Notes: generated by a model from the sequence alone, not told the origin. DNA of 32,000 nt from Candidatus Brocadia sp. (GCA_021650915.1 CP091279.1:3960001-3992000); one strand, 5' to 3'. Numbered from the stretch's first letter, positions 1,091 through 30,255 are shown. Numbers and translations are program-made.

Positions 1091-3436
1091 TTAGAACCGG
1101 AAAGCCAATGCAGCACGCACCGCAATGGGTTCGACCGGTTTAAAATGAATGTCATTATGCGAAGCGCCCTCATCTTTCAAGCGCGATGGATAATAATAAT
1201 CAATCTCGTGGTCCTCGTTGTTGAGGAGATTGAAACCCTCGACACTGAGAGTCCAGTTTTTGTTGAAATTGTAGCCCGCTTTTGCACTCAGCAGCCTGGT
1301 GGATCCGGAGCGAATACTATTGTCTTCCGTAAGAGGGCGAGGGCCAAAAAACCGCAACCGTAGTTCACTGAAGAGGCCACGCTCACCTGGCTGATGGAAT
1401 GCAATTCCTGTGGATATAACGCTGTCAATTGCGCCGGGGATGTGTCTGCCCTGCACTCCTTCACCCTCAACAGTTTCGCTAAACTCAGCGTGCGAAAATG
1501 AGAAATCAGCGTCCAGAGAGAGCCATTGGGCGGGCGTATAGTAATTTGTCCACTCGACGCCATAACGTCTCGTCGGGGCGCTGGCTTCAGTGCTGCCAGC
1601 GTCTCCGGAAAAAACGAGCTCAGAATCCATATCCAGCAACCATAACGCCAGCGTGCTTTGCAATCCCTTAACAATCGTCGTGCGCACACCAATTTCCGCC
1701 CCTTTTGTGCGCACTAAAGGATCTGCGGATTCCACAGCGTCTCCCGTTTTTGGATCAACCTGTTGCGTCACGCCGTTCCCGGAATTGCTGTGGAAACCGA
1801 AGCCTCCGCTCAAATAATACTCCGTTTTGGCCCAGGGGCCGAAGACAAGCGACCCTTTGGGGCTAACGATCGCGTCATCTCGCGTGCCAGAGTTGGCGGA
1901 TAAATCACTATTCACATCGAAGTGGTAATAATCCATCCGTAATCCGAAAACCGTGCGGAATTTGTCAGCCCATTGAATCTTGTTCTCGACATAGGGAGAG
2001 AGACTCGTTTCCCACACATCATCCTTACGCGTTGTGTCTGAAATCGTCTTACCGTCATAATCTACTTTATCCGTACGTCTTCGTTCTACAGTTTGAAACA
2101 AGCCATTGGTAATCGAATCACTGCGTATTTGCAGGCCAACGGTGTTTTCCATATCACGGTTAAACACCTCGCTATACCAGGTATGGCTGACTTTTGTGCC
2201 ACCGACCCACCGCCTGTCAATTTGCTCAAACTGATCACCCTGGGGACTGTCAAGAAAATAGGTAAAATTGGAAAACAAATCGAGATCGTAGTAAAATCCA
2301 TACAGCAGCGCCTTTGTGGAGGAGTCTGCATCGGCACGATGCCACTCAGCGGAAAGACTGTGACGTTGAGAGTCTCCGCCATCGTTTGAACCCAGTGAAT
2401 CGAAACGGCCAAAGCCTGGAACCACATCCAGGGCGCGCCGGGCAATTTGGTCGGTCGCGTTCCAGTCCCCTGCATACGACATGGATGTTATGCTATAGCC
2501 CCACTCTGGCGTGCCCTGACTGTACCTCAGCACGCCATTTATCCTCTTGTAATCATCCGGCTCGGTCCAGGGGCCGTCATTATGGAATAATTCAACGGCA
2601 TAAAGGAGATTTCCTCTTCCGGCAAGATGTGATCCGGCATACAATCCCCGCGCATAACCCAAGCTGCCGCCCTCCACCTGTGCTATGCTTTGTGGAAGGA
2701 AATCAACATAGTGGATGTCTGCGGCGCCTGTGGAGGAAAAATCGCCGAGGTCGGCAAAATAGACCCCTTTCCGGAAATCCACGCGCTCAATTAGTTCAGG
2801 AATGATAAAATTCAAATCTGTATAACCCTGGCCATGCCCATGCGTGGGCAGATTTACCGGAACGCCGTTGACCGATGTGGCGAAGTCTGTTCCATGATCA
2901 AGATTAAAGCCACGCAGAAAAAACTGATTCGCCTTACCGGCGCCACTGTGCTGGGTGACGATAACGCCGGGAACCGTCTCCAGCACTTCACCGGGACGCG
3001 AGAAGGTGCGCCATTCCAACTCGTCCTTCCCTCTGGTGCCCTGAGACGCCGTGCCTGCAATGCCAAGCAAACTGTCCGCACGTCCGCTGACCAACACTTC
3101 CGGCAAAAGAATCGCATCGCTAGAGGAATCCATTGCTTCCGTGGACTCTTGTATGATCCCCGGTGAATCATCTGTATTATTACCGCTTTCCTCTGATTGA
3201 TTGAAAGAGTTTGCATCTGCTTCATTTGCTGTTGGAGAGCTGGTTTCGGCTTGCTCCTCAGTTATGCCCTGCCCTGCTGATTGTTTTAGAATTGCCTCGT
3301 TGCTCGCGGCTTCCGTTTCTTCCGAGCGACGTCTCGTTGAAGCAGTTTCCGTCGTTTCCCCGGCCAAAGCGGTCTTGCAACAAAAGTCAGGCGCCAAAAT
3401 AATTACGAACATGACAAAAAGATACTTCATTTGCAT
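1091..3436 (-). CDS. TonB-dependent outer-membrane receptor, cobalamin-riboswitch controlled, with an acidic N-terminal extension
   Basis: 781-aa ORF with a signal peptide (MQMKYLFVMFVIILAPDFCCKTALA). About 83 aa of acidic, S/T/E-rich low complexity follow, then a plug-like region (LLPEVLVSG...VIVTQHSGAGKANQFFLRGFNLDHGTD). A long beta-rich body ends in ...ALAFRF, the terminal aromatic typical of OM barrels. Its RBS and start lie directly 3' of a cobalamin riboswitch. Confidence 0.85.
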   Translation of the reverse strand: MQMKYLFVMFVIILAPDFCCKTALAGETTETASTRRRSEETEAASNEAILKQSAGQGITEEQAETSSPTANEADANSFNQSEESGNNTDDSPGIIQESTEAMDSSSDAILLPEVLVSGRADSLLGIAGTASQGTRGKDELEWRTFSRPGEVLETVPGVIVTQHSGAGKANQFFLRGFNLDHGTDFATSVNGVPVNLPTHGHGQGYTDLNFIIPELIERVDFRKGVYFADLGDFSSTGAADIHYVDFLPQSIAQVEGGSLGYARGLYAGSHLAGRGNLLYAVELFHNDGPWTEPDDYKRINGVLRYSQGTPEWGYSITSMSYAGDWNATDQIARRALDVVPGFGRFDSLGSNDGGDSQRHSLSAEWHRADADSSTKALLYGFYYDLDLFSNFTYFLDSPQGDQFEQIDRRWVGGTKVSHTWYSEVFNRDMENTVGLQIRSDSITNGLFQTVERRRTDKVDYDGKTISDTTRKDDVWETSLSPYVENKIQWADKFRTVFGLRMDYYHFDVNSDLSANSGTRDDAIVSPKGSLVFGPWAKTEYYLSGGFGFHSNSGNGVTQQVDPKTGDAVESADPLVRTKGAEIGVRTTIVKGLQSTLALWLLDMDSELVFSGDAGSTEASAPTRRYGVEWTNYYTPAQWLSLDADFSFSHAEFSETVEGEGVQGRHIPGAIDSVISTGIAFHQPGERGLFSELRLRFFGPRPLTEDNSIRSGSTRLLSAKAGYNFNKNWTLSVEGFNLLNNEDHEIDYYYPSRLKDEGASHNDIHFKPVEPIAVRAALAFRF

Positions 3437-3473
3437 CCATCCTTCCCCCTCGGAAATAAGAATTAAAAAGTGT

Positions 3474-3775
3474 GCTCAAACAGGTCTCCTGGCTGCCGGG
3501 TCTTCCTACGTTCTGCGCCTTCCCATCCCTTGAGATCGTCTCACCGCAAAGACGCAGAGGTCGCAAAGAAAAACAGAAGATTAGGAAATAAAGAGGCCTT
3601 GTTTTTGCATTCCCATCTTCCAGGTTTCTTACCTCGTCCTCGTCCTTTTCCTTTGCGCTCTTTGCGCCTCTGCGGTGATCTCTTTCCCAATCACGACAGT
3701 GGCATAGTGCAGAGCTCGTCGCCGGTTACAGTTGCGGGGCAGCTCCCGTTTTTACGGGATTCCCTGAATATTTGA
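3474..3775 (-). promoter_or_regulatory. Cobalamin riboswitch (long variant) leading the receptor-exbBD operon
   Basis: The minus strand reads AGGGAATCCCGTAAAAACGGGAGCTGCCCCGCAACTGTAACCGG ... GCCACTGTCGTGATTGGGAAAG ... GGGAAGGCGCAG ... GGCAGCCAGGAGACCTG (B12 box). The receptor RBS and ATG follow about 35 nt later. An extra long helix is inserted between the core halves (arms about 3537-3567 and 3660-3682). Confidence 0.85.
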
Positions 3776-4080
3776 ACTATTAATAATAAGGACGCAGATT
3801 TCCGATGATTACCGCAGACTTTGTCGTGAACGCACAGTCGAATGACAATAATTTTATCTTCTGGTTTTTAAATCCTGATAATCAGTATTCATCTGTGTCC
3901 GATTTCGTAAGTTTTTATCTTTTTTTATCCCCTCCCTTCATAAATATTCCACGAATCCTCTTTCTTAAAGGGGAAGTCTTCAACCAGACTGATCAAAAAA
4001 TTTTTGCCTATAATGTGTATGTATTGGCAAACTGCCGTTTTTCCTGCTAGTTGTATACAAAGATTGATTTTTAGGAATGT

Positions 4081-10009: not shown

Positions 10010-12388
10010 TTAAAATTTAAATTCAAATCCTCCATACGCTGTAAAACCAAGCGAACTAAAACCGGTTACTTCTTCGTAATGATAATCAAAAAGGTTTTCA
10101 AGCCTGATATATCCGGTCATCATCTTTGTAATGTCGTAACTTGTTGACACATTCGCTGTCCAGTAATTATCCATTTCTGTCCCATCACTATCGATTCTGT
10201 CTCTGACCATAACACCAACCACATTAACATTCCACTTCTCCATCGGCCGGGTATTAACCCCAAGTGTCGCCCGGTTTCTCGGTCTGCGCGGTAGTTGTTG
10301 ACCCTTTTCTCTGTCTTCCGTCTTTGTATACGTGTAGGTGCCGGTAAGAGAAAGTTTGGGAAATGGTTTATAGGTGAGCGATGTCTCAATTCCCTCAGAT
10401 TCTGCCCTTGCTACATTTTCTGCCAAGAAACTACCGTCAGGTTGAATTGCAGCAGTAATCAAATCCGTGAAATCGTTCTCAAAGTAGGTAACGTCCAGAG
10501 TTAACGTATCTTTAAGAATCTCCTTCTCAACACCAAAATCCCAACCCTTACTCTTTTCGGGACCGAGGTTCGGATTGCCATAGAAAGGGAAAAAGAGTTC
10601 ATTGATACTTGGAGCGCGAAAACCGGTTCCCCACGACCCATGGAATCTGGTATCAATCTCATCTATATTGTAAGACACCGTCGTTCTGTAAGTGAGATTA
10701 TTCCCAAATGTGCTGTAATCATCATACCGTAACCCGGCCGTCCAGTTTAACGAATCAAATAATTTTATCTGGTTTTGCAAAAAAACTGAATTATTCCAAA
10801 AGGTTTTTTTGTCGAATACGCCGTCATTCTCACCCTCCCGTGCTTCGTATTCATAGCCTACGGTTAATGTATCAATGTCAAGGAGGGCAAAGTCAGATTG
10901 GTGTTCAAACCTCCAAACCCTTGTAGGAATGCGGAATTCTCCTGATGCATCCGTTGGATCAAATCCTTTCAGCTCTGTATCATTAACGGACACAAGGACT
11001 GATGGCGTCCAGAAATCAAAAAAGGTCTTGTTAACCCTTGTAGAAAAAAGGACTTCATCCGTCGTTTGGCGCCGGTCAGGGTCGTCTACAGGACCGACGC
11101 CGTAGAGATACGCATCAGTTTCGAAATCAGAGTGTGACCCTCTTACGGTAGTATCAATCCGTCCATCGTCCATAAAATTCCATCCCAGACGCGCTGAGCC
11201 GGTGAAATTCTCACAGGCATCATTTTCGTCTCCACTATGGGCGGCAGATATCCCATGGGTTTTCAGATAAGAACCTCCGACCGAATAATCGAACCTTTCT
11301 TTGCCACCGGAAACACTAACGCTCTCCCGGTAGGTATCACGCATTCCGTACTCCGTCCCCAAGGTAACTTTATTTTCTCCCTGCCCCTTTTTTGTAAAAA
11401 TAGAGACAACGCCGCCCATCGCATCCGAACCATACAATGTACTCTGCGGACCGCGCAAGATCTCGACCCTCTCAATGTTATCCGTTGTAAGATTTGCAAA
11501 ATCAAACGCCCCTGTTGTCGTACTATTCATCTGTACGCCGTCAACAAATACAAGGGTTTGGGCAGAAGATGCGCCTCTGATAAACATACTTGTCGTCCCG
11601 CCTATTCCCTGAGTTCTGGTAACCTCAAGCCCCGGCGCCTGGCGCAAAACATCAAGAAGAAGGGGCGCCTTGCCATTTTTAATATCTTTTTCTGTAATAA
11701 CCGTTACAGAACTACCGGTATTCCTTAATAATTGCTTTGTCCTCGTGGGAGTAACAACCGTCTCTTCGTTATCACGGAACATGTTTTCTTCCTTCTTTTC
11801 TTCAGTTTTATTTTCCTCCTTCTTTTCACTCATCTCCTTACTTTCGGCATCATTTTTACTCCCACTTTGATTTTGTTCTTCATTCTCATTTGTGTTTTTA
11901 TTCTTATCGTTGATTTTTTTATCCGTCGCTGCCTCTCCCTTCATTTTATTATTCTCGCCCCCATTTTGATCTTTATTCTCAATTTGTTTCTCCCCGTCCC
12001 CTCTTATAGCAGACCGATCAAACTCCTCTTTAAATATAAGCCTTCTTGATGATGACCTCAAATCATATTCGGGATCATTTATTTTCGGTATCTTAGAGGA
12101 CTGTTCTGTACCACGGTACTGTTCGGGCAAATAATCTCCTTCCTGGTTATTTTCCGTTTTGTCCGTACCCTCTTTTTTGATGGAGATAACCAAAGGTGGA
12201 GTCATCTGGTTATCACCTGGCGTATTTTGATTTTCTCTGATTTGTCTTTTCAACTCCATCAGTTTTCTCTTTAAATCCTCATTTTCCTGAATAAGCGATT
12301 CCATCGTTTTTTCGTCTGCAAAGCAATAAGAGTTTGATAATGATAAACTGAGTGATACAAAAATTATCTGCAAATAACAGCCCTTCAT
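10010..12388 (-). CDS. btuB: TonB-dependent receptor, BtuB-like core, with ~184-aa K/E/N-rich N-terminal extension
   Basis: The ORF-track start (12460) would overlap the riboswitch B12 box. I prefer the ATG at 12388 (MKGCYLQIIFVSLSLSLSNSYCFA, a signal peptide), which sits where the twin leader at 3436 places its start. A TonB-box-like/plug region is present (EETVVTPTRTKQ...VTVITEKDI...FIRGASSAQTLVFVDGVQMN...RVEILRGPQSTLYGSDAMGGVVSIFTKKG). The barrel is about 585 aa (BtuB-sized) and ends ...GGFEFKF. The btuB symbol is inferred from riboswitch control and size. Confidence 0.8.
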   Translation of the reverse strand: MKGCYLQIIFVSLSLSLSNSYCFADEKTMESLIQENEDLKRKLMELKRQIRENQNTPGDNQMTPPLVISIKKEGTDKTENNQEGDYLPEQYRGTEQSSKIPKINDPEYDLRSSSRRLIFKEEFDRSAIRGDGEKQIENKDQNGGENNKMKGEAATDKKINDKNKNTNENEEQNQSGSKNDAESKEMSEKKEENKTEEKKEENMFRDNEETVVTPTRTKQLLRNTGSSVTVITEKDIKNGKAPLLLDVLRQAPGLEVTRTQGIGGTTSMFIRGASSAQTLVFVDGVQMNSTTTGAFDFANLTTDNIERVEILRGPQSTLYGSDAMGGVVSIFTKKGQGENKVTLGTEYGMRDTYRESVSVSGGKERFDYSVGGSYLKTHGISAAHSGDENDACENFTGSARLGWNFMDDGRIDTTVRGSHSDFETDAYLYGVGPVDDPDRRQTTDEVLFSTRVNKTFFDFWTPSVLVSVNDTELKGFDPTDASGEFRIPTRVWRFEHQSDFALLDIDTLTVGYEYEAREGENDGVFDKKTFWNNSVFLQNQIKLFDSLNWTAGLRYDDYSTFGNNLTYRTTVSYNIDEIDTRFHGSWGTGFRAPSINELFFPFYGNPNLGPEKSKGWDFGVEKEILKDTLTLDVTYFENDFTDLITAAIQPDGSFLAENVARAESEGIETSLTYKPFPKLSLTGTYTYTKTEDREKGQQLPRRPRNRATLGVNTRPMEKWNVNVVGVMVRDRIDSDGTEMDNYWTANVSTSYDITKMMTGYIRLENLFDYHYEEVTGFSSLGFTAYGGFEFKF

Positions 12389-12429
12389 CCATCCCTTCTC
12401 CCCTCGGAAATAAGAATTAATAAATGTGT

Positions 12430-12730
12430 GCTCAAACAGGTCTCCTGGCTGCCGGGTCATCCTACGTTCTGCGCCTTCCCATCCCTTGAGATCGTCTCAC
12501 CGCAAAGACGCAGAGGTCGCAAAGAAAAACAGAAGATTAGGAAATAAAGAGGCCTTGTTATTGCATTCCCATCTTCCAGGTTTCTTACCTCGTCCTCGTC
12601 CTTTTCCTTTGCGCTCTTTGCGCCTCTGCGGTGATCTCTTTCCCAATCACGACAGTGGCATAGTGCAGAGCTCGTCACCGGTTACAGTTGCGGGGCAGCT
12701 CCCGTTTTTACGGGATTCCCTGAATATTTG
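12430..12730 (-). promoter_or_regulatory. Cobalamin riboswitch (long variant), near-identical twin of 3474-3775
   Basis: It has the same core, B12 box (GGCAGCCAGGAGACCTG) and inserted helix as copy 1. By eye I see only three substitutions over about 300 nt. It is followed by the receptor RBS and start. Confidence 0.85.
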
Positions 12731-12760
12731 AACTATGATAAACCTGAGATTATTACGCAA

Positions 12761-12793: not shown

Positions 12794-12820
12794 TTTTGCG
12801 AGTAAAATTTCTCTATGATT

Positions 12821-12866
12821 AAATAAAAAAGCCCGTTCCTTCGCATTGAGAAGAAACGGGCTTTTA
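12821..12866 (-). terminator. Intrinsic terminator (expression platform of the upstream riboswitch)
   Basis: The minus strand reads AAAAGCCCGTT-tcttctcaatgcgaagg-AACGGGCTTTT followed by TTATTTAAT. This is a GC-containing stem plus a U-run, about 55 nt 3' of the B12 box of the 12921-13135 riboswitch. Confidence 0.7.
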
Positions 12867-12920
12867 CAAGATGGACATCACGCTTCACCTCCTTTACGAC
12901 GAAGAAGTTTTCAGCCAAAC

Positions 12921-13135
12921 ACTACAGGCAGGTCTTCTGACTACGGATCATCCTACTGATTGCACCTTCCCGAAAGGCCGTTTAAGAGGCCTTTCAGTGG
13001 TTCTTGCAACGTTCGTCACCGATTACAGCGGCGGTACCGTTCCCTTTTCTCCGAATTTCTGACACAAAGAACTACGCATGAATAGTTATCAGAAATTCGT
13101 TGGAGTGGGGATTCCCTTTGAGCCCCGATAAATAC
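12921..13135 (-). promoter_or_regulatory. Cobalamin riboswitch (short variant), first of a tandem pair
   Basis: The minus strand reads CAAAGGGAATCCCC ... GGGAACGGTACCGCCGCTGTAATCGGTGACGAA ... CCACTGAAAGGCC...GGCCTTTCGGGAAGGTGCAA ... GTAGTCAGAAGACCTGCCTG (B12 box). It is a paralogue of the cbiM leader riboswitch, not of the adjacent long variant. Confidence 0.8.
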
Positions 13136-13199
13136 CGGAGCGCCTGTATGTGGAATTTTCCTTATATTATTTTGTCTTTACATAACGTATCCTTTCCAT

Positions 13200-16121
13200 T
13201 CAAAAAAGCGTGCCTTCAACACGTTGTTTTGTAAGTTTAGAGTATTCCAATATCTCCCCTACAGAAGCCCCTTTTGACTGCATGCTATAGAACGTATTTT
13301 CACCTACAAGGGCGTAAGACCAATTACCGTCATCCCGATCATCCGGTTTTAATTCATTTATCTTCTTTAACCAGTCCAGCGCCGACTGTTTCTTCAGGAG
13401 AACATTTTCATCCTTAATATCCTTCTGTGCCTTTGTTTCCACAAGATAGATATGCTTTGGAGTTTTTATAATAAAATCAGGATAATAAGACGACAGAATA
13501 CCATCGCTCCTGATGTAGTTCAGATGCGCAAAATCATGATACATTTCACTAATCTTAAGAAATGCCTTAACCGCACCGTCATGGTCACAAGCCAGCATGA
13601 AATTCTTTTCCAATGCACCTTTATTAGATGGATACGGAAGCCTTTCGTAGATTGTCTTTACCATATCAAGAGAAAAATTCTCCCGCATTTTTAATTGTTC
13701 TACCTGTGAAAAGTATTGCTTTATTACAATGGCATCCTGCACATCAACGGTATTCTGCATCTCATATAATACCTTGCTAAGTTCCTTTATGATGTGCTCA
13801 GTAATACCGGTTTGTGACAGCAAAAGCACGCGCCAGTTATTGTCTTCCAGAGGATTGAATTCCTGATTAAAGAGATTGTGCCTTACAAAGTCATCAATTA
13901 ACTGTACCAGACTAGCTTGATTAATCTGCATAGCGGGATAGTCCTTTGTCCTACGCTGGGTAATCTTGACAACGGTGCTTGTGATTATCTTTACCAACTT
14001 TGATAAAAACTCATTGTAGCTTTTCGCAGTGAAAAGCTCCGCCGTAACCTTGTAGTCGCCAAACCTTGTCTTTACGGTCATTTCTTCTGAATAGAACGTT
14101 TCTCCTTTTTCACACACCATCAGTTTAAGCTGGTCGAGATTGTACCACTGCATAATTTTTAGATTGTCCAGAGAAGGCATTACGTCTTTTAAAAATTCCT
14201 CTCTTTCCTGTATTATTACAGGCCAGTACAGGTCGTAATCTTTATAATTCTGTTTGAGTCCGACCTTGATAATATCCCCTAAAATACCTTCTCTATCCCT
14301 GGGTAATTCAGTTATTTCGCCAACAAGCCCTTCTTTTATAAGGTCATCGTAAAATTCAATAAATGCCGGGTGTTCTACAATGCTTAATATATCCAAATAG
14401 TTTGATGGCGCTTCCTTCCTTTTAAGGAGCCTTGTTCTGTTTTCTTCCTTTGCGTCCTGAAACTCGGGCTCTCTCCACATTAACCGCAAACCTCTTCCAA
14501 GTATCTGCTCCAGGAGTATCGGCGCCTGTGTTGAGCGTAATGGCACGATAACACAGATATTATTCACATCGAACCCTTCGCGGAGCATGAGCACCGAAAC
14601 GATAACCTTTGGTTTTTCGTGTTTGTCAACATTAAACAGTCTTTGTTTAATCGTGTCCCATTCCTTTGCGGGAATGCTCCCTTTCTTATCAGAGTCTATC
14701 TGGACAACGTCTTCTTCACCAAGACCTTCGGCCTGTGTTAAAAACCCGGTAACATAAGGAGAAACCGCTGTGTCCTCACATATAACAAGCATCTTTGGAT
14801 GTTTATCCGTAATGCCATTTTTATCTTGCGTCAAATCCGTAAATTCCTTTTCAAGTATTTTCAGTTTTGTCAGACCAGCGCGGAGCATCAATTTCTGTCC
14901 CTCTGACAGCCCTATTACTTTATTGCCATCCCTCATTGCCCTGAAATCAAGCTCCATCGTGGCAATTTCCTTGCGTCTGTCTAATGTAATCGTTTTGACA
15001 AGCCCTCCGTGAATTGCGTTCCTCAAATCGAAATCGACAACAATATGTGGGAAATAATGCTTTGTCCTGCGCTGCCCGCTTCCCGCCACATCATAAGGAG
15101 TTGCAGAAAAATCAATTTGGATAAACTTCTTTCCCTTGTTTTCAGAAATTTTATTCAACGACTTCTGCCATTCCACCTCTGAGACAATCCCCGCCCGTTT
15201 TGTTTCGTGTATGTGGTGCGCCTCATCATTAAAAACAACGATGCTTTCTAACTTTGCCAGATACTCAATCTCACCGCCGCTTAAATATTTGTTGTCCAGG
15301 GTATTTAAATCATGCCCGGCAGAAGTGCCTGGCGTCACCGGGAATATTTCTTTTACCGCTACCGATGGGTCTTCAAGTGGCGAGGGGTTGCTATCAACCT
15401 CTTCTTCCTCCCCCGCAAGCAAATGCCAGTTGGTTATAGCAATTAACCCGGAGCCGGTTACTTTACGTCCAATTTCTTCCTTCCTGACAACGCAGGTCTG
15501 GATGAATCCATAGACTTCATCCCTGTATGCAGGCGGGATAAACAGCTTCTCATATTGTTTAAAATCTGAAGCCTCAAAGTCGCGAATTCCATCTTCCCTT
15601 TGCTTTCCAAGGTAGGCGTCCAGCAATCTTTCATATACGATAAGACCCGGGGCGACAAGCAGAAAGTTTGTGGAATAGCATCCGCTTGGCTTCTCCTCGT
15701 GCCTCGCATTCAAGTACTGCCAGATAAGCAGGGCGTTCATTACCCACGTCTTGCCCGTGCCAGTCGCCATCTTCATGCAATATTTGGGATGACTGAATTT
15801 GTCTTTTCGCAGGTAACTCAAGTCCATCTCTGCCAGGATTTCATTACTTATCATTGAATACAAATCAAACACAGACTCCGGCCTTAGTATTTCATGCGCA
15901 TAAATCGTATTTAAAATCGCCTGCCGTTGTCCGTCGTGAAAATTAACGTGACGGGTTTCCGTGAAGGCATCAGAGAACCAGAATCGCAGTAAATCCTGGG
16001 TAATGGGGGTTGCTTTCGCAAGAAATTCACCGCTATCCCACACACGATGAACAATCCCTGTTATTTCCCTGGCAAATTTTAAGGGAATTTCCCTGGTTCC
16101 TGTGTTTAACGATATGGACAT
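13200..16121 (-). CDS. res: Type III restriction enzyme, Res subunit (SF2 helicase + C-terminal PD-(D/E)xK nuclease)
   Basis: 973-aa ORF with helicase motif I (MATGTGKTWVM), motif II (VVFNDEAHHI), motif III-like (DFSATPY) and motif VI-like (QILGRGLRL). A C-terminal nuclease-like motif is present (YYPDFIIKT...YLVETKAQKD). A Mod gene lies on the same strand upstream. Confidence 0.85.
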   Translation of the reverse strand: MSISLNTGTREIPLKFAREITGIVHRVWDSGEFLAKATPITQDLLRFWFSDAFTETRHVNFHDGQRQAILNTIYAHEILRPESVFDLYSMISNEILAEMDLSYLRKDKFSHPKYCMKMATGTGKTWVMNALLIWQYLNARHEEKPSGCYSTNFLLVAPGLIVYERLLDAYLGKQREDGIRDFEASDFKQYEKLFIPPAYRDEVYGFIQTCVVRKEEIGRKVTGSGLIAITNWHLLAGEEEEVDSNPSPLEDPSVAVKEIFPVTPGTSAGHDLNTLDNKYLSGGEIEYLAKLESIVVFNDEAHHIHETKRAGIVSEVEWQKSLNKISENKGKKFIQIDFSATPYDVAGSGQRRTKHYFPHIVVDFDLRNAIHGGLVKTITLDRRKEIATMELDFRAMRDGNKVIGLSEGQKLMLRAGLTKLKILEKEFTDLTQDKNGITDKHPKMLVICEDTAVSPYVTGFLTQAEGLGEEDVVQIDSDKKGSIPAKEWDTIKQRLFNVDKHEKPKVIVSVLMLREGFDVNNICVIVPLRSTQAPILLEQILGRGLRLMWREPEFQDAKEENRTRLLKRKEAPSNYLDILSIVEHPAFIEFYDDLIKEGLVGEITELPRDREGILGDIIKVGLKQNYKDYDLYWPVIIQEREEFLKDVMPSLDNLKIMQWYNLDQLKLMVCEKGETFYSEEMTVKTRFGDYKVTAELFTAKSYNEFLSKLVKIITSTVVKITQRRTKDYPAMQINQASLVQLIDDFVRHNLFNQEFNPLEDNNWRVLLLSQTGITEHIIKELSKVLYEMQNTVDVQDAIVIKQYFSQVEQLKMRENFSLDMVKTIYERLPYPSNKGALEKNFMLACDHDGAVKAFLKISEMYHDFAHLNYIRSDGILSSYYPDFIIKTPKHIYLVETKAQKDIKDENVLLKKQSALDWLKKINELKPDDRDDGNWSYALVGENTFYSMQSKGASVGEILEYSKLTKQRVEGTLF

Positions 16122-16210
16122 TATAGTGTTACTCTATAAAAACTTCTTTTTCTGTAAGGTTTTCTTTGTGATCTTTGTAGTTGAACTTTTTTGGTTGCGG
16201 CTGTGCTGCG
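16122..16210. repeat. Miniature derivative of the 21731-22192 repeat family, filling the whole res/AlbA_2 intergenic spacer
   Basis: 16122-16165 (TATAGTGTTACTCTATAAAAACTTCTTTTTCTGTAAGGTTTTC) matches the 5' end of the ~230-bp unit. 16191-16210 (TTGGTTGCGGCTGTGCTGCG) matches its 3' end. The interior hairpin is absent. The element abuts the res ATG on one side and the upstream gene's stop on the other. Confidence 0.7.
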
Positions 16211-17401
16211 TTAGGCAATTTTTCCTCGTTTGTACATTGTTACCACGACCTCATGTTCACCTTCTTTTATACCAAGCGCTGGATTCCCATTTTCCTTTAG
16301 CCAGCGGTTGGATTTTGGAATGCCTTGTCCTGCCCGTTCAACCATATTTGCATCAAAAAAATACTGTGCCAATACCGGGTTTCTGTGATACTTGATGCCG
16401 ACCTTCATCTTTTCTACTGTTATGGTATTGGGAAGCCCGCCCGGGCTTTTGATTTCTATTCTGTCATCATATATCCAGACGGTAATACCCGTCCCGGCTA
16501 TCGTGTAATCCCTGTGAATAATGGCATTTGCCAGGATTTCCCGAAAAGCCTTTTCAGGGTAATCGTAAAAATCAATCCGTTTCACCCCTTCAATTACAAA
16601 GGATTGCCTGTTGTAAAGATAAAAAAAGCTGACGGCGTCTTTAAAATTGTCAAATACGTTTCTCTCAAAAAATTTCAGGTTTTCTTTCTCATCGGTGATA
16701 TGTGTCCCGGAAACCTTTACACACATGATTTCTGCCTGCGGCAAATATTTTGTAACGCGATCTTTTCCAAAAAGCAGGAGGCCGGCAATTGTCGGACGGT
16801 ATTGGTTGTCAGCAAAAGTAATCAGTTCAAGACTCTGAAACAGATTCAGCTTGTTTTCTTCAGTCAGTTCAATACCACTTCTGTTATTTTTCAGATATTC
16901 CTTTATCTCATACTCATCCAATGTTTCCGGTTTTGCATAAGAGGCGGGGATAATTTCATAGTGAATATTTTGGGATGCCTGAAAGAGCCTCTGAAGTTCA
17001 TCCCTGTGCTTTACCTCCCTTGTCGTACTGCCGTATCTCATATAGTAGCGGTTTGTCTTTGCAGCTTTATCCTCCATGTAATATGGCTTATTGCAGCCGT
17101 TATCAATTTCAACTACTCCGATGCGTTTACCCTCAATACTCATTTCATAATATGCTGGATTTATTACCGGTTTTATCAAATCAGAACATATATTTACCAT
17201 GCGCTCTTCATTATCATTCCGTGCAATTCCTGAAACCTTCCCGGCATCATCAACGCCCAGAAGGAGGTAGCCGCCTCTATGGTTGGACAATGCGATAATC
17301 TCCTTTGCAAGCTTTTTATTATCAACGGTGTCCTCTTTAAACTCTACATAAGAGTTTTCACCGCCAGCTATCAACTTCAGCACCTCCTGTTCATGAAGCA
17401 T
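16211..17401 (-). CDS. AlbA_2 (Schlafen-like 'divergent AAA') + HATPase_c_4 domain protein, often annotated as RecG-like or putative transcriptional regulator
   Basis: The start is set at the ATG preceded by GGAGGTGAGATA; the track's TTG at 17419 is less likely. The N-terminal region has the AlbA_2 pattern (GENSYVEFKED...LAKEIIALSNHRGGYLLLGVDDAGKVSGI). The C-terminal region has the HATPase_c_4 pattern (FREILANAIIHRDYTIAGTGITVWIYDDRIEIKSPGGLP...HRNPVLAQYF). Confidence 0.75.
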   Translation of the reverse strand: MLHEQEVLKLIAGGENSYVEFKEDTVDNKKLAKEIIALSNHRGGYLLLGVDDAGKVSGIARNDNEERMVNICSDLIKPVINPAYYEMSIEGKRIGVVEIDNGCNKPYYMEDKAAKTNRYYMRYGSTTREVKHRDELQRLFQASQNIHYEIIPASYAKPETLDEYEIKEYLKNNRSGIELTEENKLNLFQSLELITFADNQYRPTIAGLLLFGKDRVTKYLPQAEIMCVKVSGTHITDEKENLKFFERNVFDNFKDAVSFFYLYNRQSFVIEGVKRIDFYDYPEKAFREILANAIIHRDYTIAGTGITVWIYDDRIEIKSPGGLPNTITVEKMKVGIKYHRNPVLAQYFFDANMVERAGQGIPKSNRWLKENGNPALGIKEGEHEVVVTMYKRGKIA

Positions 17402-17503
17402 TATCTCACCTCCAAACAATTATCCGGCTTTTAGCTTAAGAAACCAGAAACATCAGGAATTTATCCTGGCAAACCACAAATCACATTATCGTTTTTCCTG
17501 TCC

Positions 17504-17560
17504 TCCTGCATTCTTCAGATCTTATTTCCTGAACTATCTTTTCATCTGAAGAATGCAGGA
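17504..17560. repeat. 17-bp-stem perfect hairpin between mod and the AlbA_2 gene
   Basis: TCCTGCATTCTTCAGAT (17504-17520) and ATCTGAAGAATGCAGGA (17544-17560) are exact reverse complements around a 23-nt loop. No U-run follows on either strand. Confidence 0.8.
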
Positions 17561-17577
17561 ACATAATAAACTTTACG

Positions 17578-19662
17578 TTATTCCTCTGTATCCTTAATCA
17601 CAACGCTCTCAAACCCAAACACGTCAACCGCCTTTACGCATATCTTTCTCTTATGATGAACTTTGGGAACTTTCAACTTGGCTTCAAGGACGACGTGGTG
17701 CGGGTCTGAGTCGTTCGATGTATTATTCCGGTAATCCTGCCATTTGCTTCTGAATGTCTCGCAGTCGTAGTCGGGGTCAACAGACCAGTATTCGATTAAC
17801 GCCAGTGGGTCTTTTTCTATAACCGTCTGTAATTTTTCTTTGTTTGCCTCGTCGAGAGGCAGTGCGTCTGGAGAAAGCAGGACGTAGTTATCCAGGGTAA
17901 TGGTCAATTCATCCATATTGTCGTCAATGCCTCTTACCTTTGGCTTTTTAATGGACAAATATTGCAAGGATGAAAAACGCACCTGCCCTGTTTTTAAGAG
18001 CTTTTCATAACCTGCCTTTGTCTTGAGCTTATCGAGGAGATCGGGCGGTATAACCAGGACTTCCAGTTTGTCATCATTCAATGCCTGTATCTGCGCGGCA
18101 ATGTCAAAGACGAAATTCCAGCCCAGGACGACGACCTTCCTCCACCCGCCCATAAAGGATTCCCGTAGTTCCTGCGCCTTTTTCATGGTGGCAAAACCTG
18201 TCAGTTTGGATGGAGAATCAACCATGACCAGCGTCTTGGATTCTTTTATATAACCAATGTTGCGGTTGGGATTATTTTCTTCCGGGAATGGTATCGCACC
18301 GTAAAGGTTGAGCACCACGTGGGCAAGGTCGCCCACCCGGCGAAACAGCCTGCTTGAGGCAAATGCCTCTTTTTGGTAATCGCCAATGGATTGATAAAGG
18401 AACGGCTTTGCCTCCTGATCAATGAGGCGTTTGCGGGTGATCATGATGGCGGGTTTGCCGATGTCGCATACAATCCAACGACGGCCAAGTTTTTCGGCAA
18501 CGGCTGCGGTAGTGCCTGAACCTGTAAAAAAGTCAGCGATAATGGAATTTTTATCAGAAGACATGCCAAGTACACACTCAAGCAACGTTTCTTTCTTCTC
18601 GGTGCTATATCCGGTAGTAAACGCAGAAACAGTTATGTCCTCCCATAAAGTGTCTCTCAGAATATGGTCGGTTGCTTCAATTTTATATTCTGGCTTTCCC
18701 GTTTGTGGGTTAGGTCTTAATTTCCCTTCTTTTATTGCCTGTTCTGCTTTTTCCTTTGTCCATGCCCAATGGCGACCTGATGGTGGAATTTTACCAAACA
18801 ATGGATAATCCATGCCGTTTCTTAACCCTTGAGCATCTAATGCATGCCACCTTTCTAGTTTTGGATTATATTTTTTGGGAGGGTTTATAAAGTGCTTGCT
18901 TGATTTCGCATAAAAATAAATTGAGTCGAGCGCTTCATTTAATCGCGGTACCCTTTCTCGTTCTTGAACATTTTTTCTAATTCTTTTTGCATAAATCTCA
19001 TTCCTAAAATTTTCTTTCCCAAATATCTCATCCATCAACACCTTCACATAATGTCCCACATGCCAGTCAATATGTACATAAATAGAGCCTTGTTCGCTCA
19101 GCAATTCCCTCATGAGCGCCAGTCGAGGATACATCATCTTTAAATAGCTTACCGTCCCGTCTTTCCAGGTGTCTGAATAGGCCGACTGCTCAATAACGGT
19201 TGGTCTTTGTTCCAATGTAGCACCCGGTAGCATAACCTTTGTGCGGTAATCTGCCTTGCTGTCAAAGGGAGGATCGTTATATATCAAATCAATCTTCCCA
19301 CGCATGGATGGCAAACCTGTCGCCGGATCGCCTGCAAGTAATGCCTGCATCACCAGGAGATTATCTCCGTAACACAAACGGTTTACCCATTCACCGCCAA
19401 TTTCAGAGTGCAGTTTTTGCTGTCCACCGGGGGATATCCCCGCAAATCCCAATTGCGATTCACCCAGATATTTCCTTGCCTTTGGCTTGAATTCTGGAAT
19501 TAGCCCCTTGAAAAGACCCGATGTGTCTTTGCATGGCAACACAAACTCATTTGTCTGCAACGTCAGCTTATGAGGGGACGAGATCTTCTCCAGTATCCGT
19601 TCAACCTCCTTCTTCCCCTCAGCAACGATCTTTGGCAACTGTTCTATCAGTGATTCAGCCAT
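17578..19662 (-). CDS. mod: Type III R-M Mod subunit (beta-class N6-adenine/N4-cytosine DNA methyltransferase)
   Basis: Catalytic motif IV ([11 protein letters not shown]) precedes the AdoMet motif I ([26 protein letters not shown]) by about 250 aa, giving the beta-class order with a TRD in between. I prefer the start at MAESLIEQ (19662). The track start at 19728 lies inside a 20-bp-arm hairpin repeat. Confidence 0.8.
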
Positions 19663-19684
19663 ATATTTCGTCTTTTGGTACGGT

Positions 19685-19758
19685 GTAGGGGCGAAGCATT
19701 TGCCATAAATTGGCATACATGTGTTCACACCCTAAACTGGCAACTGCTTCGCCCCTAC
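19685..19758. repeat. Long hairpin repeat (GTAGGGGCGAAGCATTTGCC / GGCAACTGCTTCGCCCCTAC) upstream of mod
   Basis: The 20-nt arms are complementary with one mismatch and enclose a 34-nt loop. The element lies between the beta-barrel gene stop (19785) and the mod start. Confidence 0.75.
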
Positions 19759-19784
19759 TACTACAATATTTGCCATTTTACAAA

Positions 19785-20600
19785 TTAAAAGAGGGGGTGT
19801 TCGAATGACAAATATGCAAAAACACCATATTCACCCTCTGAAGCTCCCAGACCCACAGGAAATGCAATCCCCGGCACTATCTGCAGGCCTGATTCAAAGT
19901 TTATTGCATAACGAACGCCCGGACTGATAAGCAATGAATCTTCTTCTCGTGTAAACACTTCTTCGTTAAAAATCTCGCTGTGACTCCACAAAACTTCCAG
20001 CATGAAATTGAAGTCCTCTTTGATCAGCCAGATAATGCTTGCCCCGACATTTCCAACAAGGTTGTCAGACTCAGATCCAACTGAATCTTTACTGTTTGGG
20101 GTATAAGTTGCCCCGATGTTCCAATGCGTTATCCATTTGTCTGAAAGTTCTATACTGAACGGAAGATTCGTTTGAATTCCGGGGGAGCCGCTTCCCATTC
20201 CTCTTTTATAATCCCCTGTAGGAAACAAGGCAGAAAATCGGGGCGAGAACGCAATTCTGTCCTGCATGATGGCCTGGTACCGATAGCTGATCATTACATC
20301 GCCAATGCCGGTAGAATTATCGGGATCGGTAACATGAGTAATTGGTATCTTGTAGGATAGTTGATGGGTTTGTCCCAGAACCGGCCACTCCTGGGTAAAG
20401 GAGTAATCCCAGGTTTTATCTTTCATATATTGAAATGTCTGGATATGCTGGACAACTCCGGCTTCCTGATTGTACGCTTCTTCGATGAGAAATGAATCAT
20501 CAACGATTTTTTTGGGTTCTTCAGCAAAAGCCGTTGCAAAAACAAAGCAAAACATTATGAAATACAGTTCCAGGGCTTTGGAAAATATTTTTCTATCCAA
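19785..20600 (-). CDS. Predicted outer-membrane beta-barrel protein (family not assigned)
   Basis: 271-aa ORF with a TTG start 7 nt after a strong SD (AAGGAG) and a signal peptide (...FIMFCFVFATAFAEE). It shows an alternating amphipathic beta pattern, and the C-terminus ...YLSFEHPLF ends in Phe as in OM barrels. Confidence 0.55.
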   Translation of the reverse strand: MDRKIFSKALELYFIMFCFVFATAFAEEPKKIVDDSFLIEEAYNQEAGVVQHIQTFQYMKDKTWDYSFTQEWPVLGQTHQLSYKIPITHVTDPDNSTGIGDVMISYRYQAIMQDRIAFSPRFSALFPTGDYKRGMGSGSPGIQTNLPFSIELSDKWITHWNIGATYTPNSKDSVGSESDNLVGNVGASIIWLIKEDFNFMLEVLWSHSEIFNEEVFTREEDSLLISPGVRYAINFESGLQIVPGIAFPVGLGASEGEYGVFAYLSFEHPLF

Positions 20601-20611: not shown

Positions 20612-21028
20612 TTACTTTAAGATGTCATAGACTATATTCACATCCATATTCTCACGAACAATACTGGCCAATCCATCGTATCTACGCTCTTTTATACTTT
20701 TGAAACCCGGCTGAAATTCATGAGACGGCTCCAATCCTTTTTTTGATCTGAGATAATTCATGAGCTTTGACCGGAACTCGTCGTTGTCGAAGATGCCGTG
20801 TATATAGGTGCCCATCACATTGCCATCGTCAGAAACACAGCCGTCCGGGATATCTACCCTCTTTCCTGCCCGTTCAGTAATCCTTGCGAAGGGCCTAACG
20901 GAATTATGTCCATCAAATATCGTCTCGCCCATATATTTTCTCACTTTATTCAGCATTTCAATATTGCTTAAACCCTGAGTTCTTCCGCTAAATGCCTTCA
21001 TTTTTATTATATCGTCTATTGAATTCAA
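20612..21028 (-). pseudogene. Duplicated 3' fragment of cobQ (C-terminal ~95 aa only)
   Basis: The residues ...YMGETIFDGHNSVRPFARITERAGKRVDIPDGCVSDDGNVMGTYIHGIFDNDEFR...IVRENMDVNIVYDILK align with the C-terminus of the full CobQ at 22324-23859 (HMGETTYNGHNFVRPFARITERAGKRVDILDGCVSVDGNIVGTYIHGVFDNDGFR...IVRENIDMNMIYKMV). Long identical nucleotide runs are shared (for example AGAAACACAGCCGTCC.GGATATCTACCCTCT). The N-terminal ~45 aa are unrelated, and the ATPase and glutaminase cores are absent. Confidence 0.8.
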
Positions 21029-21101: not shown

Positions 21102-21419
21102 TCAATCAACTAGCATCTCTTTAATTATTGATTTAATCTTTGTGATGGCATCATCAGTTATTCGCCCCAATCTTTTGACCAACCGACTCCTGTCAACTGT
21201 TCTTATCTGATCAAGCACTATCCAGCCTGTTCTCTTCTGAAAATTTATTTTCACCCTGGTTGGGTAACTGTGGGACTTTGTAGTCATTGGTGCAATAATG
21301 ATTGTCTGAATATTTTGGTTCATTTCATCAGGGGAAATTACCAGGCAAGGTCTTGTCTTCTGGATTTCAGAACCGATCGTAGGATCGAAATTGACGAGAT
21401 ATATATCGTACTGGTTCAT
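21102..21419 (-). CDS. mazF: MazF/PemK-family type II toxin (endoribonuclease)
   Basis: MNQYDIYLVNFDPTIGSEIQKTRPCLVISPDEMN...IIAPMTTKSHSYPTRV...GWIVLDQIRTVDRSRL is a typical PemK/MazF pattern. The ATG at 21419 overlaps the antitoxin stop (ATGA). Confidence 0.85.
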   Translation of the reverse strand: MNQYDIYLVNFDPTIGSEIQKTRPCLVISPDEMNQNIQTIIIAPMTTKSHSYPTRVKINFQKRTGWIVLDQIRTVDRSRLVKRLGRITDDAITKIKSIIKEMLVD

Positions 21420-21664
21420 TTCCATTCCCAATTTTCCATTGAGTCTATGGTCTCATCAAACAACAATGCATCATCCTTTTTGTCGTGCATTAATCGGAAG
21501 GCGTCATTCCATCCCTCTCGAGGGCTGGTTTTTACCGGCTTGATTACTATTTTTTCTTTTTCGACTTCCAAATCAATCTCATTTTCAATCTTGCATTGCT
21601 TCAGTATTGCCATCGGTATCCTGATACCTTTTGAATTTCCTATTGACACAAGTTTTGTCTTCAC
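21416..21664 (-). CDS. mazE: AbrB/MazE/SpoVT-family antitoxin
   Basis: 82-aa ORF with a GTG start 4 nt after GGAGGTGA. The N-terminal swapped-hairpin motif (KLVSIGNSKGIRIPMAILKQ) is present, and the gene sits directly upstream of and coupled to mazF. Confidence 0.8.
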   Translation of the reverse strand: MKTKLVSIGNSKGIRIPMAILKQCKIENEIDLEVEKEKIVIKPVKTSPREGWNDAFRLMHDKKDDALLFDETIDSMENWEWK

Positions 21665-22323: not shown

Positions 22324-23859
22324 TTAAATTGTTACCATTTTGTAAATCATGTTCATATCAATATTTTCCCGGACAATCTCTGCGAGTTTGTTGTATTTCT
22401 GCTCTTTTATTCTCTTGAATTCCAAAGGAACATCATACGAGGGTATTTGTCCCTTTTTCTTTCTCAGGTGTTGAATGAGTTGAAAACGAAAGCCATCATT
22501 GTCGAAAACGCCATGGATATACGTGCCGACGATGTTGCCATCGACAGAAACACAGCCGTCCAGGATATCTACCCTCTTGCCTGCCCGTTCGGTAATCCTT
22601 GCAAAGGGTCTGACAAAATTATGACCGTTATACGTTGTTTCTCCCATATGAATCTCATATCCCGTGATCTCATCATCCACACGAAACAGATTTTCATGAC
22701 CCAGCATGCATGCCTTGACCTGAAAGGTCTGTTTCTCCCTGGCAAAGGTAGTCACGGTATTCAATAAACCTAAACCCTGGATACCATCGTTTGATGATTC
22801 TACATGATACGGGTCGTGAATGTACCGTCCCAGCATCTGGTATCCACCACAGATACCCATGATCATAACACCCCGCTTTGACAGTCTCACCATTTCATCT
22901 GCTATGCCCTGACTCACAAGAAACAGCAGGTCATCTATCGTATTTTTTGTGCCGGGGATGATAAGCAAGTCGGGGTTTCCAACATCACATGCCCCGTCGA
23001 CGAAACGAATTTTTATGCCCTCCTCGTGATGAAGTATCGCAAAATCCGTAAAGTTTGATATGCGAGGCAATTTAATTACTGCAATATCCACCGTGTTATT
23101 ATGCGGAACATCTGCCTTTTTGCTGCTTATATTTTCGAGAGAAACGGAATCCTCATCGTCGATATTCAACTGATGCAGGTATGGTATTACTCCTACGATG
23201 GGTTTCCGGATGCGTTCTTCCAGCATATCCAGTCCAGGCTTCAGGATATTCTTGTCTCCCCGGAATTTGTTGAATATGACACCTACCACCCGGTTCCTTT
23301 CACTTTCGGTTAGTAATTCAAGCGTTCCCACAATCCAGGCAAAAGCCCCGCCACGATCAATATCGGTAACCAGCAATACAGGAGCAGAAGCCATCTCTGC
23401 CATCCCCATATTGACGATATCACCGTCCTTCAGATTTATCTCCGCCGGGCTGCCTGCCCCCTCAATAACAATCACATCAAATTGGTTTCGCAAGGTATCG
23501 TAGGCTTCTCTTATGATGGAAACGAATTCGCCCTTCTTCTGATAATACTCCCTGGCAGTCATATTCCCTATGGGCCTGCCCATAATAATGACCTGTGAGC
23601 CGCAGTCCCCCGTAGGTTTAAGGAGTATGGGGTTCATCTCTACCATGGGTTCGATTCCGGCGGCCTCAGCCTGCGCCACCTGCGCCCGTCCCATTTCCCT
23701 TCCGTCTTTTGTCACAAAGGAATTCAAGGCCATATTCTGGGCCTTAAACGGGGCAACCCGGTAACCGTCCTGTTTCAGGATGCGGCAGAGGGCGCAGGTC
23801 AGGATACTCTTGCCCACGTGCGAACCCGTACCCTGTATCATAATGGATCTCTTTGTCAT
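22324..23859 (-). CDS. cobQ: Cobyric acid synthase CobQ/CbiP
   Basis: 511-aa ORF with an N-terminal P-loop (IMIQGTGSHVGKS), a CobQ-type ATPase domain and a C-terminal glutamine amidotransferase domain (...LIIPGTKNTI...MGICGGYQMLG...GTYIHGVFDND). Confidence 0.9.
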   Translation of the reverse strand: MTKRSIMIQGTGSHVGKSILTCALCRILKQDGYRVAPFKAQNMALNSFVTKDGREMGRAQVAQAEAAGIEPMVEMNPILLKPTGDCGSQVIIMGRPIGNMTAREYYQKKGEFVSIIREAYDTLRNQFDVIVIEGAGSPAEINLKDGDIVNMGMAEMASAPVLLVTDIDRGGAFAWIVGTLELLTESERNRVVGVIFNKFRGDKNILKPGLDMLEERIRKPIVGVIPYLHQLNIDDEDSVSLENISSKKADVPHNNTVDIAVIKLPRISNFTDFAILHHEEGIKIRFVDGACDVGNPDLLIIPGTKNTIDDLLFLVSQGIADEMVRLSKRGVMIMGICGGYQMLGRYIHDPYHVESSNDGIQGLGLLNTVTTFAREKQTFQVKACMLGHENLFRVDDEITGYEIHMGETTYNGHNFVRPFARITERAGKRVDILDGCVSVDGNIVGTYIHGVFDNDGFRFQLIQHLRKKKGQIPSYDVPLEFKRIKEQKYNKLAEIVRENIDMNMIYKMVTI

Positions 23860-30030: not shown

Positions 30031-30255
30031 TTCATCTTATTATTGGGAAAGAACTATTTTAAACACGCAGAGCGATTCTACTTTAAATACGCTCTTCGTG
30101 TCAAACAAATTGTTTTTTCTTGCCGTTTGGCAATCACACACACTTCGTCATTTTTCCTTTGATTCTCCATCACAAGAAATATACAATATCGCCTGATGTT
30201 CATTTGTGATTTGAGCTTGTGCGCAATTTTCTTGCTAAAGGGGGATATAATTTAC

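Follow-up and report, generated by a model that had tools for sequence, protein, structure and literature searches.

Does a gene that separates the mod and res genes of a Type III restriction-modification (R-M) system work with that system, or has it only landed there? The question was raised by a 32,000-nucleotide stretch of DNA from Candidatus Brocadia sp. (GCA_021650915.1 CP091279.1:3960001-3992000), here called the window, in which a gene for a protein of 396 amino acids (aa) lies between mod and res. A first-pass annotation of the window had proposed that the three genes may form a composite defence unit, with the inserted protein as a backup effector. By its sequence, the middle protein is a Schlatpase, a supradomain of Schlafen RNase and GHKL ATPase that was named in 2026 (bioRxiv 10.64898/2026.05.29.728809). 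The best explanation of the locus, which we hold to be probable though by no means certain, is a Type III R-M operon with an embedded, co-inherited and co-expressed accessory defence gene, the stand-alone Schlatpase, acting as a second layer. The features of the operon, counted from the first letter of the window, are as follows.

17578..19728, minus strand: mod, longest open reading frame (ORF), with a GTG start at 19728; the likely start is the ATG at 19662, giving 694 aa (Pfam N6_N4_Mtase, PADLOC MTase_III)
17503..17561, minus strand: hairpin in the mod-Schlatpase spacer, with a perfect 18-bp stem and a 23-nt loop
16211..17401, minus strand: Schlatpase gene, 396 aa (Pfam, conserved residues, AlphaFold2 (AF2) model, fold and profile matches)
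16122..16210, minus strand: spacer of 89 bp from the Schlatpase stop to the res start (sequence)
13200..16121, minus strand: res, 973 aa (Pfam ResIII, PADLOC REase_III, motifs)
13199..13223, minus strand: weak hairpin and T-run over the res stop codon, a possible operon terminator

ORF calls placed the three co-oriented genes on the minus strand in the order mod, Schlatpase gene and res, with spacers of 176 bp (mod to Schlatpase) and 89 bp (Schlatpase to res). The distance from mod to res is 1.46 kb, one whole gene, and the two genes are thus not adjacent in the usual Type III manner. Apart from this separation, the operon is a canonical Type III R-M operon. The Schlatpase gene has a GGAGG Shine-Dalgarno (SD) sequence 7 nt 5' of its ATG at 17401, the strong SD already noticed in the first-pass annotation, and its stop is at 16211. 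In a scan of 12800-20200, a single, weak terminator-like match was found between the three genes; sigma-70-type promoter-like matches in the same region were all on the plus strand and none on the minus strand, the consensus being uninformative for a planctomycete. The best matches were to Candidatus Brocadia and Kuenenia, and the host is an anammox planctomycete.

The RNA of the 176-bp spacer was predicted to fold with -49 kcal/mol (z = -3.5). The arms of its 18-bp hairpin are single-copy within the window, which ruled out a repeated element of the REP (repetitive extragenic palindromic), MITE (miniature inverted-repeat transposable element) or attC-like kind, and a terminator was ruled out because no T tract follows the stem. 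Among the relatives, the hairpin is kept only in L086, a near-identical locus (L numbers denote related loci). It could serve to process or stabilise RNA, or be bound by a protein. We also considered whether the operon ends at the strong terminator of 12827-12865; this terminator more likely belongs to the cobalamin riboswitch at 12910-13162, which lies 37 bp downstream of the hairpin at the res stop.

The assignments of Mod and Res in the first-pass annotation, both on the minus strand, were borne out by motifs, Pfam and PADLOC. Mod matched Pfam N6_N4_Mtase (8.5e-33) and PADLOC MTase_III (2.4e-72), and its motifs occur in the order DPPF152 then FxGxG401 (FFTGSG401), which is that of the beta class. 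The ATG at 19662 (MAESLIEQ) was taken as the likely mod start, since relatives align only from about 19667. Res matched Pfam ResIII (3e-14) and PADLOC REase_III (2e-21) and contains the motifs GTGKT121, DEAH299, SAT339 and QxxGRGLR539 of an SF2 (superfamily 2) helicase-type ATPase. A P881-D882...E895-T-K897 motif is present at its C terminus, where the Pfam nuclease models scored below threshold (RE_endonuc, 16 bits; TnsA-like, 17.5 bits). Res is accordingly predicted to be an SF2 helicase with a C-terminal PD-(D/E)xK nuclease, the restriction subunit of a Type III enzyme. Its homologues at 60-74% identity number more than 4,600 and are spread across phyla. Membership in the BPTD_3080 family of restriction endonucleases (NCBIfam NF046055) was rejected, since the cut-off is 800 bits and the match, made up of three stretches, reached 203.

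Type III R-M systems hemimethylate an asymmetric site, and their ATP-dependent cleavage needs inversely oriented unmodified sites. In mod, a region from about 18554 to 18998 did not align with several Brocadia relatives, and the flanking parts of the gene are 83-89% identical to them. This region is likely a variable target-recognition region; an unalignable centre within similar flanks is consistent with target-recognition domain swapping, and hence with specificities that differ among close strains. The catalytic motifs of Mod, Res and the Schlatpase are all intact.

The domains that the first-pass annotation had read in the middle protein were both recovered above the gathering thresholds, and in the order that defines a Schlatpase: SLFN_AlbA_2 (PF04326) at residues 21-136 (1.7e-27; 96.7 bits against 25.3), followed by HATPase_c_4 (PF13749) at residues 309-395 (1e-20; 73.9 bits against 26). 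The protein is laid out as a Schlafen/AlbA_2 nuclease domain (about 1-145), a linker domain and a GHKL ATP-binding domain (about 225-396). In an alignment of 85 Schlatpase homologues, E15, E20, N40, E288, N292, H296, R297, G321 and G360 are invariant, and conservation is at least 90% at D52 and K22. Conservation extends to the acidic metal-binding triad, the (S)AxxN motif and the GHKL (Bergerat) motifs E288/N292 (the N box), S319-P-G321 and G358-x-G360. Profile matches to CbCash and the SLFNs aligned E15/E20 with E17/D22 of CbCash and with the 'E-x4-EFK...GVDD' segment of SLFN14. Mutation of E17/D22 abolished the activity of CbCash (PMC13462974).

In fold searches with the AF2 model of the protein (predicted local distance difference test score, 88), the N-terminal third matched SLFN5/11/12/13/14 and the tRNase domain of SAMD9, and the C-terminal half matched the GHKL kinases PDK2/4, BCKDK and HK853. 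The only full-length fold match, and the sole solved full-length structural relative, was DIP2311 of Corynebacterium diphtheriae (PDB 3lmm; Foldseek E value, 1e-20; profile E value, 2e-19). DIP2311 differs in its length of 583 aa, its extra C-terminal domains and its sequence, which is 21% identical, and it is an uncharacterised structural-genomics protein. Among defence models, PADLOC PDC-S50 matched at 2.6e-12 and the pAgo model PDLC02394 matched residues 42-339; the PADLOC pAgo and Aga models match the middle protein because they contain the same Schlatpase supradomain. The NCBIfam search gave no model for the middle protein.

It might be supposed that the Schlatpase acts on the R-M genes as a C protein does, by controlling their expression. 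The source annotations of its homologues ('predicted transcriptional regulator', 'RecG-like', 'RNA/DNA-binding protein') fit such a role; so does the winged helix-turn-helix (wHTH) that ends many longer Schlatpases (bioRxiv 10.64898/2026.05.29.728809; PMC12839542), and a 555-aa paralogue in related loci has a C-terminal extension of roughly 150 aa. The 396-aa protein, however, ends with the GHKL fold, with no helix-turn-helix (HTH) in the AF2 model; its nuclease triad and ATP-binding residues are kept across the 85 homologues; and most mod-res pairs of this Res family lack any such gene. We regard control of R-M expression as highly improbable.

What sits between mod and res in relatives was surveyed by a metagenome scan with the window Res, which gave 38 loci at 44-98% identity, both genes being visible in 32. 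In 19 of these, mod and res overlap or have no more than 2 bp between them, in agreement with the earlier statement that the two genes are normally adjacent. The other 13 have something in the slot, and the states found were as follows.

L088, L089, L090 and L100: 555-aa Schlatpase
B. sapporoensis, L001-4 and L087: 559-aa and 396-aa Schlatpases
Window: 396-aa Schlatpase alone
L086: truncated Schlatpase copy
All six Brocadia-lineage contigs: Schlatpase
L099: DUF1016/YhcG
L114: DUF1016 and an IS200-type transposase gene
L101: DUF3800
L111 and L112: toxin-antitoxin pairs
L108 and L123: small unknown ORFs

A neighbour-joining tree of Res showed that all Schlatpase-bearing loci of this Res family fall in one subclade (at least 70% identity), which contains the window and in which 11 of the 12 loci hold a Schlatpase or a remnant between mod and res. 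The sole cargo-less member is L091, and the loci of the tree outside the subclade had no Schlatpases. The Schlatpase tree has a matching clade, mostly R-M-embedded, made up of the window, L001, L005, L130, L131, L124 and L134. The 555-aa Schlatpases form a separate deep branch, and those of L019/L028/L043 and of L078 are further separate lineages.

The contents of the slot have been exchanged between similar operons. In L124 and L088, Mod and Res share 90-91% identity with those of the window; the first carries a TrlF-family ATPase gene (described below) with a 66%-identical Schlatpase, and the second the 555-aa Schlatpase, only 23% identical. Three Schlatpase types have been swapped between mod/res flanks of about 90% identity, and the alignment breakpoints lie no more than 14 bp from the mod stop and 1 bp from the res start. 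In the comparison with B. sapporoensis, the ratio of nonsynonymous to synonymous substitution rates (dN/dS) was 0.12 for the Schlatpase and 0.08 for res. The trees, the dN/dS ratios and the breakpoints together point to a gene that is under purifying selection, has been inherited with Res and has been exchanged as a cassette through recombination in conserved flanks. The co-inheritance with Res is that of one sublineage of this R-M family, and the three-gene arrangement is neither chance nor a one-off insertion.

Relatives of the Schlatpase occur both inside and outside R-M operons. The nearest homologues outside Brocadia (those of L005, L124, L134, L131-133 and L130) are 64-66% identical to it. 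The settings of the closer homologues, and of Schlatpases in distantly related Type III operons, were as follows.

L005 (Geobacteraceae): Mod/Schlatpase/Res, genes abutting or overlapping
L124 and L134: Mod/ATPase of about 900 aa/Schlatpase/Res
L131-133: Schlatpase beside truncated res and mod
L130: Schlatpase alone
L125/126, L006, L129 and L135/136: 50-57% identical Schlatpases, alone among housekeeping genes
L127/128: 50-57% identical Schlatpase, paired with the ATPase only
L019 and L043: Mod/TrlF/Schlatpase/Res, with distantly related Mod and Res
L028: partial Type III operon with the Schlatpase module
L078: Mod/Schlatpase/Res, with distantly related Mod and Res

The Res of L043, a distant partner, was missed by phmmer with the window Mod and Res and found through Pfam. 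The Schlatpase stop overlaps the res start in L001-4, L005, L131, L019 and L028; the two genes overlap in B. sapporoensis and other relatives, in contrast to the 89-bp spacer of the window.

The ATPase of about 900 aa belongs to the TrlF family (NCBIfam NF045780; 486-516 bits against a cut-off of 350), with PHP and ABC-ATPase domains; it is related to the anti-phage protein Ppl and is not a member of the Ppl family. In a wider sample of the Schlatpase clade (80 species-representative loci, 28-53% identical), the TrlF ATPase gene lay directly upstream of the Schlatpase gene in about 27 of the 80 loci by hidden Markov model and in 25 of 72 upstream neighbours by Pfam. ResIII was found in 8 of 76 downstream neighbours, Type I HsdR proteins among them, and NACHT, DUF1156 methylases and an OLD-family nuclease were further tightly linked downstream partners. 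The TrlF-Schlatpase pair thus recurs widely as a two-gene module, with TrlF upstream and the genes often overlapping. It was found alone, in Type III R-M operons between mod and res, and in BREX-1 (bacteriophage exclusion) between pglX and pglZ. Literature searches found no description of the pair, and a search for 'TrlF' gave nothing relevant. The module was located as follows.

L124:2204-4888, L134:2101-4797, L127:4303-6990 and L019:1800-4523: the module
L137:4356-8161 and L138:3981-7894: the module on plasmids

Two other settings were observed. L131:1217-6524 (also L132 and L133) is a decaying system, in which mod is truncated, PIN and radical-SAM genes have been inserted and res is broken into pieces of 314 and 163 aa; its Schlatpase is intact and has outlived the R-M genes. 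In two organisms (L125/L126:4654-9060 and L006:4772-9130), a Schlatpase 53-55% identical to that of the window lies between a hydantoinase and a short-chain dehydrogenase gene. The same housekeeping context in two organisms suggests a stably inherited copy outside any defence island.

Several of these observations weigh against a Schlatpase that serves the R-M system as an accessory. Homologues 50-66% identical stand alone among housekeeping genes. In L086, which is 98.8% identical to the window over 9 kb, the Schlatpase ends after about codon 50 and res is intact. Unrelated cargo occupies the mod-res slot elsewhere in the Res family, so that location alone is no proof of cooperation between Schlatpase and R-M. 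The commonest neighbour of the wider Schlatpase clade, the TrlF/Ppl-like ATPase, is absent from the window, where tblastn gave a best E value of 0.16 and the two-gene module is thus incomplete. The Schlatpase of the window is more loosely coupled than those of its relatives, with the 176- and 89-bp spacers, its own SD and the large upstream hairpin. Finally, the survey samples were small and partly redundant, with several Brocadia-lineage contigs among them. Since most family members lack the Schlatpase, close homologues occur without R-M and the sister strain has lost it, the Schlatpase is not an obligatory part of the enzyme.

In L086, window 16162-17253 is replaced by about 380 bp that is unrelated in sequence and contains inverted repeats rich in GC (L086:900-1280). 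Two of its motifs, CCCCCGCTGGCGGGGG / CCCCCGCCAGCGGGGG, are palindromic and GC-rich, and the replacement resembles a MITE or the scar of a deletion.

Such observations could also be read to mean that the mod-res junction is a permissive 'genomic sink' and that the Schlatpase gene is an autonomous defence or selfish cassette, which shares only transcription and transfer with the R-M genes. The variety of cargo in the slot, the stand-alone homologues and the loss in L086 would all be expected of a hitch-hiker. On a Vibrio plasmid, the TrlF-Schlatpase pair is nested in BREX-1, with pglX and pglZ on either side, and on Pseudomonas plasmids it is alone, adjoining mobile elements. Synonymous divergence (dS) from B. 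sapporoensis, lower for the Schlatpase (0.29) than for res (0.52), suggests a separate, more recent transfer of the Schlatpase. Random cargo, however, would not be expected in 11 of the 12 loci of the Res subclade, and the repeated gene overlaps and the recurrence of Schlatpases with unrelated Type III systems also speak against it. We consider a pure hitch-hiker quite improbable.

The same evidence bears on the composite unit of the first-pass annotation, which was to be abandoned if related mod-res loci lacked the gene and it occurred elsewhere without R-M. Half of this was found: most related pairs are without the gene, and homologues 50-66% identical are alone. The proposal of a unit with a backup effector otherwise gained from the 11 of 12 subclade loci, the overlaps with the res start, the dN/dS of 0.12 and the recurrence in distant Type III operons, and it lost from the truncated copy in L086. 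The interpretation in the first-pass annotation is partly supported.

A closer coupling would be gating of the kind proposed for PrrC, in which the Schlatpase is held inactive by Res-Mod, or activated by Res-made DNA ends, and fires when a phage inhibits or evades restriction, the whole being one sensor-effector machine. The overlap of the Schlatpase stop with the res start in many relatives implies stoichiometric co-expression, one Res subclade has co-inherited the gene, four separate Schlatpase lineages have taken the same slot, and the 396-aa form itself lacks both a sensor domain and an HTH. PrrC with EcoprrI is a precedent for such a machine (bioRxiv 10.1101/2024.01.29.577857), and Schlafen-ATPase homologues have been speculated to detect structures made by DNA cleavage (PMC13462974). 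However, close Schlatpase homologues occur without an R-M partner, so that the Schlatpase cannot depend on Res/Mod to stay harmless, and L131-133 keep an intact Schlatpase beside truncated res and mod. The exchange of Schlatpases only 23-66% identical between nearly identical Mod/Res flanks also counts against a tightly co-evolved protein interface. Gating by Res/Mod is possible, but it is disfavoured by the stand-alone homologues and the free exchange, and we think it unlikely.

The first-pass annotation had also compared the locus with the PrrC/RloC-type nucleases nested in Type I R-M loci. The comparison holds as an analogy only, in that an RNA-targeting suicide effector may be nested in an R-M operon as a possible backup when restriction is blocked. 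The window protein is unrelated to PrrC and RloC, having neither their ABC-ATPase head nor a PrrC-type nuclease, and its host is a Type III rather than a Type I system. Membership in PrrC/RloC or Hma was rejected, since no ABC-ATPase, HEPN or PrrC model matched in Pfam, PADLOC or NCBIfam. In addition, Schlatpase homologues often lack any R-M neighbour, whereas PrrC is almost exclusively embedded (bioRxiv 10.1101/2024.01.29.577857).

Closer parallels are found among Schlafen proteins. In Runella zeae SLFN-pAgo, the binding of ATP to its GHKL domain leads to tetramerisation, which assembles the Schlafen tRNase (bioRxiv 10.64898/2026.05.29.728809). Oligomerisation driven by ATP and cleavage of tRNA are known only from RzAgo and other Schlafens (bioRxiv 10.64898/2026.05.29.728809; PMC13462974). 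The window protein has the same two Pfam domains in the same order, the acidic triad and the GHKL residues, and shares the comparison with PDK-type kinases; it differs in being small and stand-alone, without Argonaute, NACHT, HTH or other sensor domain. About 60,000 sequences contain a Schlatpase, most of them small and with no other domain or a short C-terminal HTH, and no group of prokaryotic Schlafen proteins is larger than the stand-alone Schlatpases (bioRxiv 10.64898/2026.05.29.728809). In Type I R-M operons, a Schlatpase is reported to have a gene of its own or to be joined to the S subunit (bioRxiv 10.64898/2026.05.29.728809).

Schlafen-ATPase proteins were described as 'tightly associated' with R-M, BREX and type I CRISPR systems (PMC13462974), and RNases with Schlafen, histidine-kinase-like and wHTH domains were proposed as backup effectors of BREX in at least 1017 taxa (PMC12839542). 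With these BREX/R-M-embedded RNases (PMC12839542; PMC13462974 Fig. 6, clusters 2 and 7), the window protein shares a Schlafen domain, a minimal histidine-kinase-like ATPase and nesting in the same orientation; it differs in its host, a Type III system with the gene at the mod-res junction, and in having no wHTH and no TrlF partner. Nesting of defence genes in Hma, BREX, DISARM and Type I R-M loci was recognised as a general feature in the 'guilt-by-embedding' study of Payne et al. 2024 (bioRxiv 10.1101/2024.01.29.577857). The same-orientation nesting and the PDC family match agree with that study, which covered those four kinds of system and not Type III; other cargo in the slot of this Res family includes DUF1016, which is PDC-S02, and DUF3800. 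In the surveyed texts, the Type III mod-res slot, the cassette swapping and the partnership with TrlF were not described, and no test of an R-M-embedded Schlatpase was found.

By homology, the operon with its accessory Schlatpase may work as follows. Mod2Res1/2 would methylate DNA and restrict DNA that is unmodified, through the ATP-dependent action usual for Type III enzymes. The Schlatpase would be a latent tRNA/RNA endonuclease; ATP bound at the GHKL domain would bring about a dimer or tetramer, in which two Schlafen domains pair into an active site, as in Runella SLFN-pAgo. Its activation when restriction fails would shut down translation, a second layer of the abortive-infection type. It could be triggered when the Res-Mod complex is lost or inhibited, by DNA ends that Res has made, or by a phage factor. 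To our knowledge, none of the small Schlatpases has a known trigger. Comparative genomics suggests that the mod-res slot is a site for exchangeable cassettes, where recombination in the conserved 3' end of mod and 5' end of res would swap Schlatpase types, with or without the TrlF/Ppl-like ATPase.

The Schlatpase is thus probably a latent, ATP-switched tRNase that serves as a second layer, and its functional coupling to R-M is plausible. Restriction probably does not need the Schlatpase, and intact res and mod genes without it are no proof of activity. A bolder version, which we consider rather unlikely, is that the mod-res junction of this Type III lineage is a dedicated, recombination-exchangeable effector slot, in which Res-Mod activity or its inhibition by a phage directly controls a Schlafen tRNase. 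It would be the Type III counterpart of EcoprrI-PrrC, with Mod/TrlF/Schlatpase/Res as the complete version and the window as a reduced one.

The neighbourhood of the operon in the window contains the following features.

12418-12746, 12910-13162, 3462-3790 and 29827-30043, minus strand: four cobalamin riboswitches
31525-31636, plus strand: c-di-GMP-I (cyclic di-GMP) riboswitch, 54 bits against a gathering threshold of 35
21102-21431, minus strand: MazF/PemK toxin gene, overlapping a MazE-type antitoxin gene at 21416-21664
22324-23859 and 10010-12460: cobQ-type gene and TonB receptor gene of a cobalamin cluster, whose members also include DUF4430 and CobN

The riboswitches at 12418-12746 and 12910-13162 form a tandem pair, which lies directly downstream of res; the TonB-dependent receptor gene is downstream of the pair, and the terminator at 12827-12865 is between the two riboswitches. 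The riboswitch copy at 12386-12736 is 97.7% identical to 3434-3780. The MazEF pair lies two genes upstream of mod and makes up, with the R-M operon, a small defence and toxin-antitoxin islet inside the cobalamin gene cluster; the equivalent place in B. sapporoensis holds an AbiJ_NTD4 gene and an SBF transporter gene. A 138-aa ORF at 20612-21028 (minus strand) is a fragment that duplicates the C-terminal GATase_3 end of the cobQ-type gene, and may be the scar of the insertion that brought the MazEF pair.

The locus is a real, locally conserved case of a pattern reported in surveys, namely, putative backup effectors nested in methylation-based defence loci. A lineage whose R-M enzyme is simple, with two subunits, and has a Schlatpase in a fixed slot is a compact test system; in its natural variants, the slot is empty or contains the short form, the long form, the two together, a Schlatpase with TrlF or a truncated copy. 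These variants bear on whether Schlafen RNases serve as backup effectors under gating by restriction complexes, a question that also touches on the way in which DNA-damage sensing is coupled to tRNA cleavage in mammalian SLFN11-type proteins. Even if the Schlatpase were only a hitch-hiker, the locus would be a clear example of defence-gene embedding that reaches Type III R-M systems.

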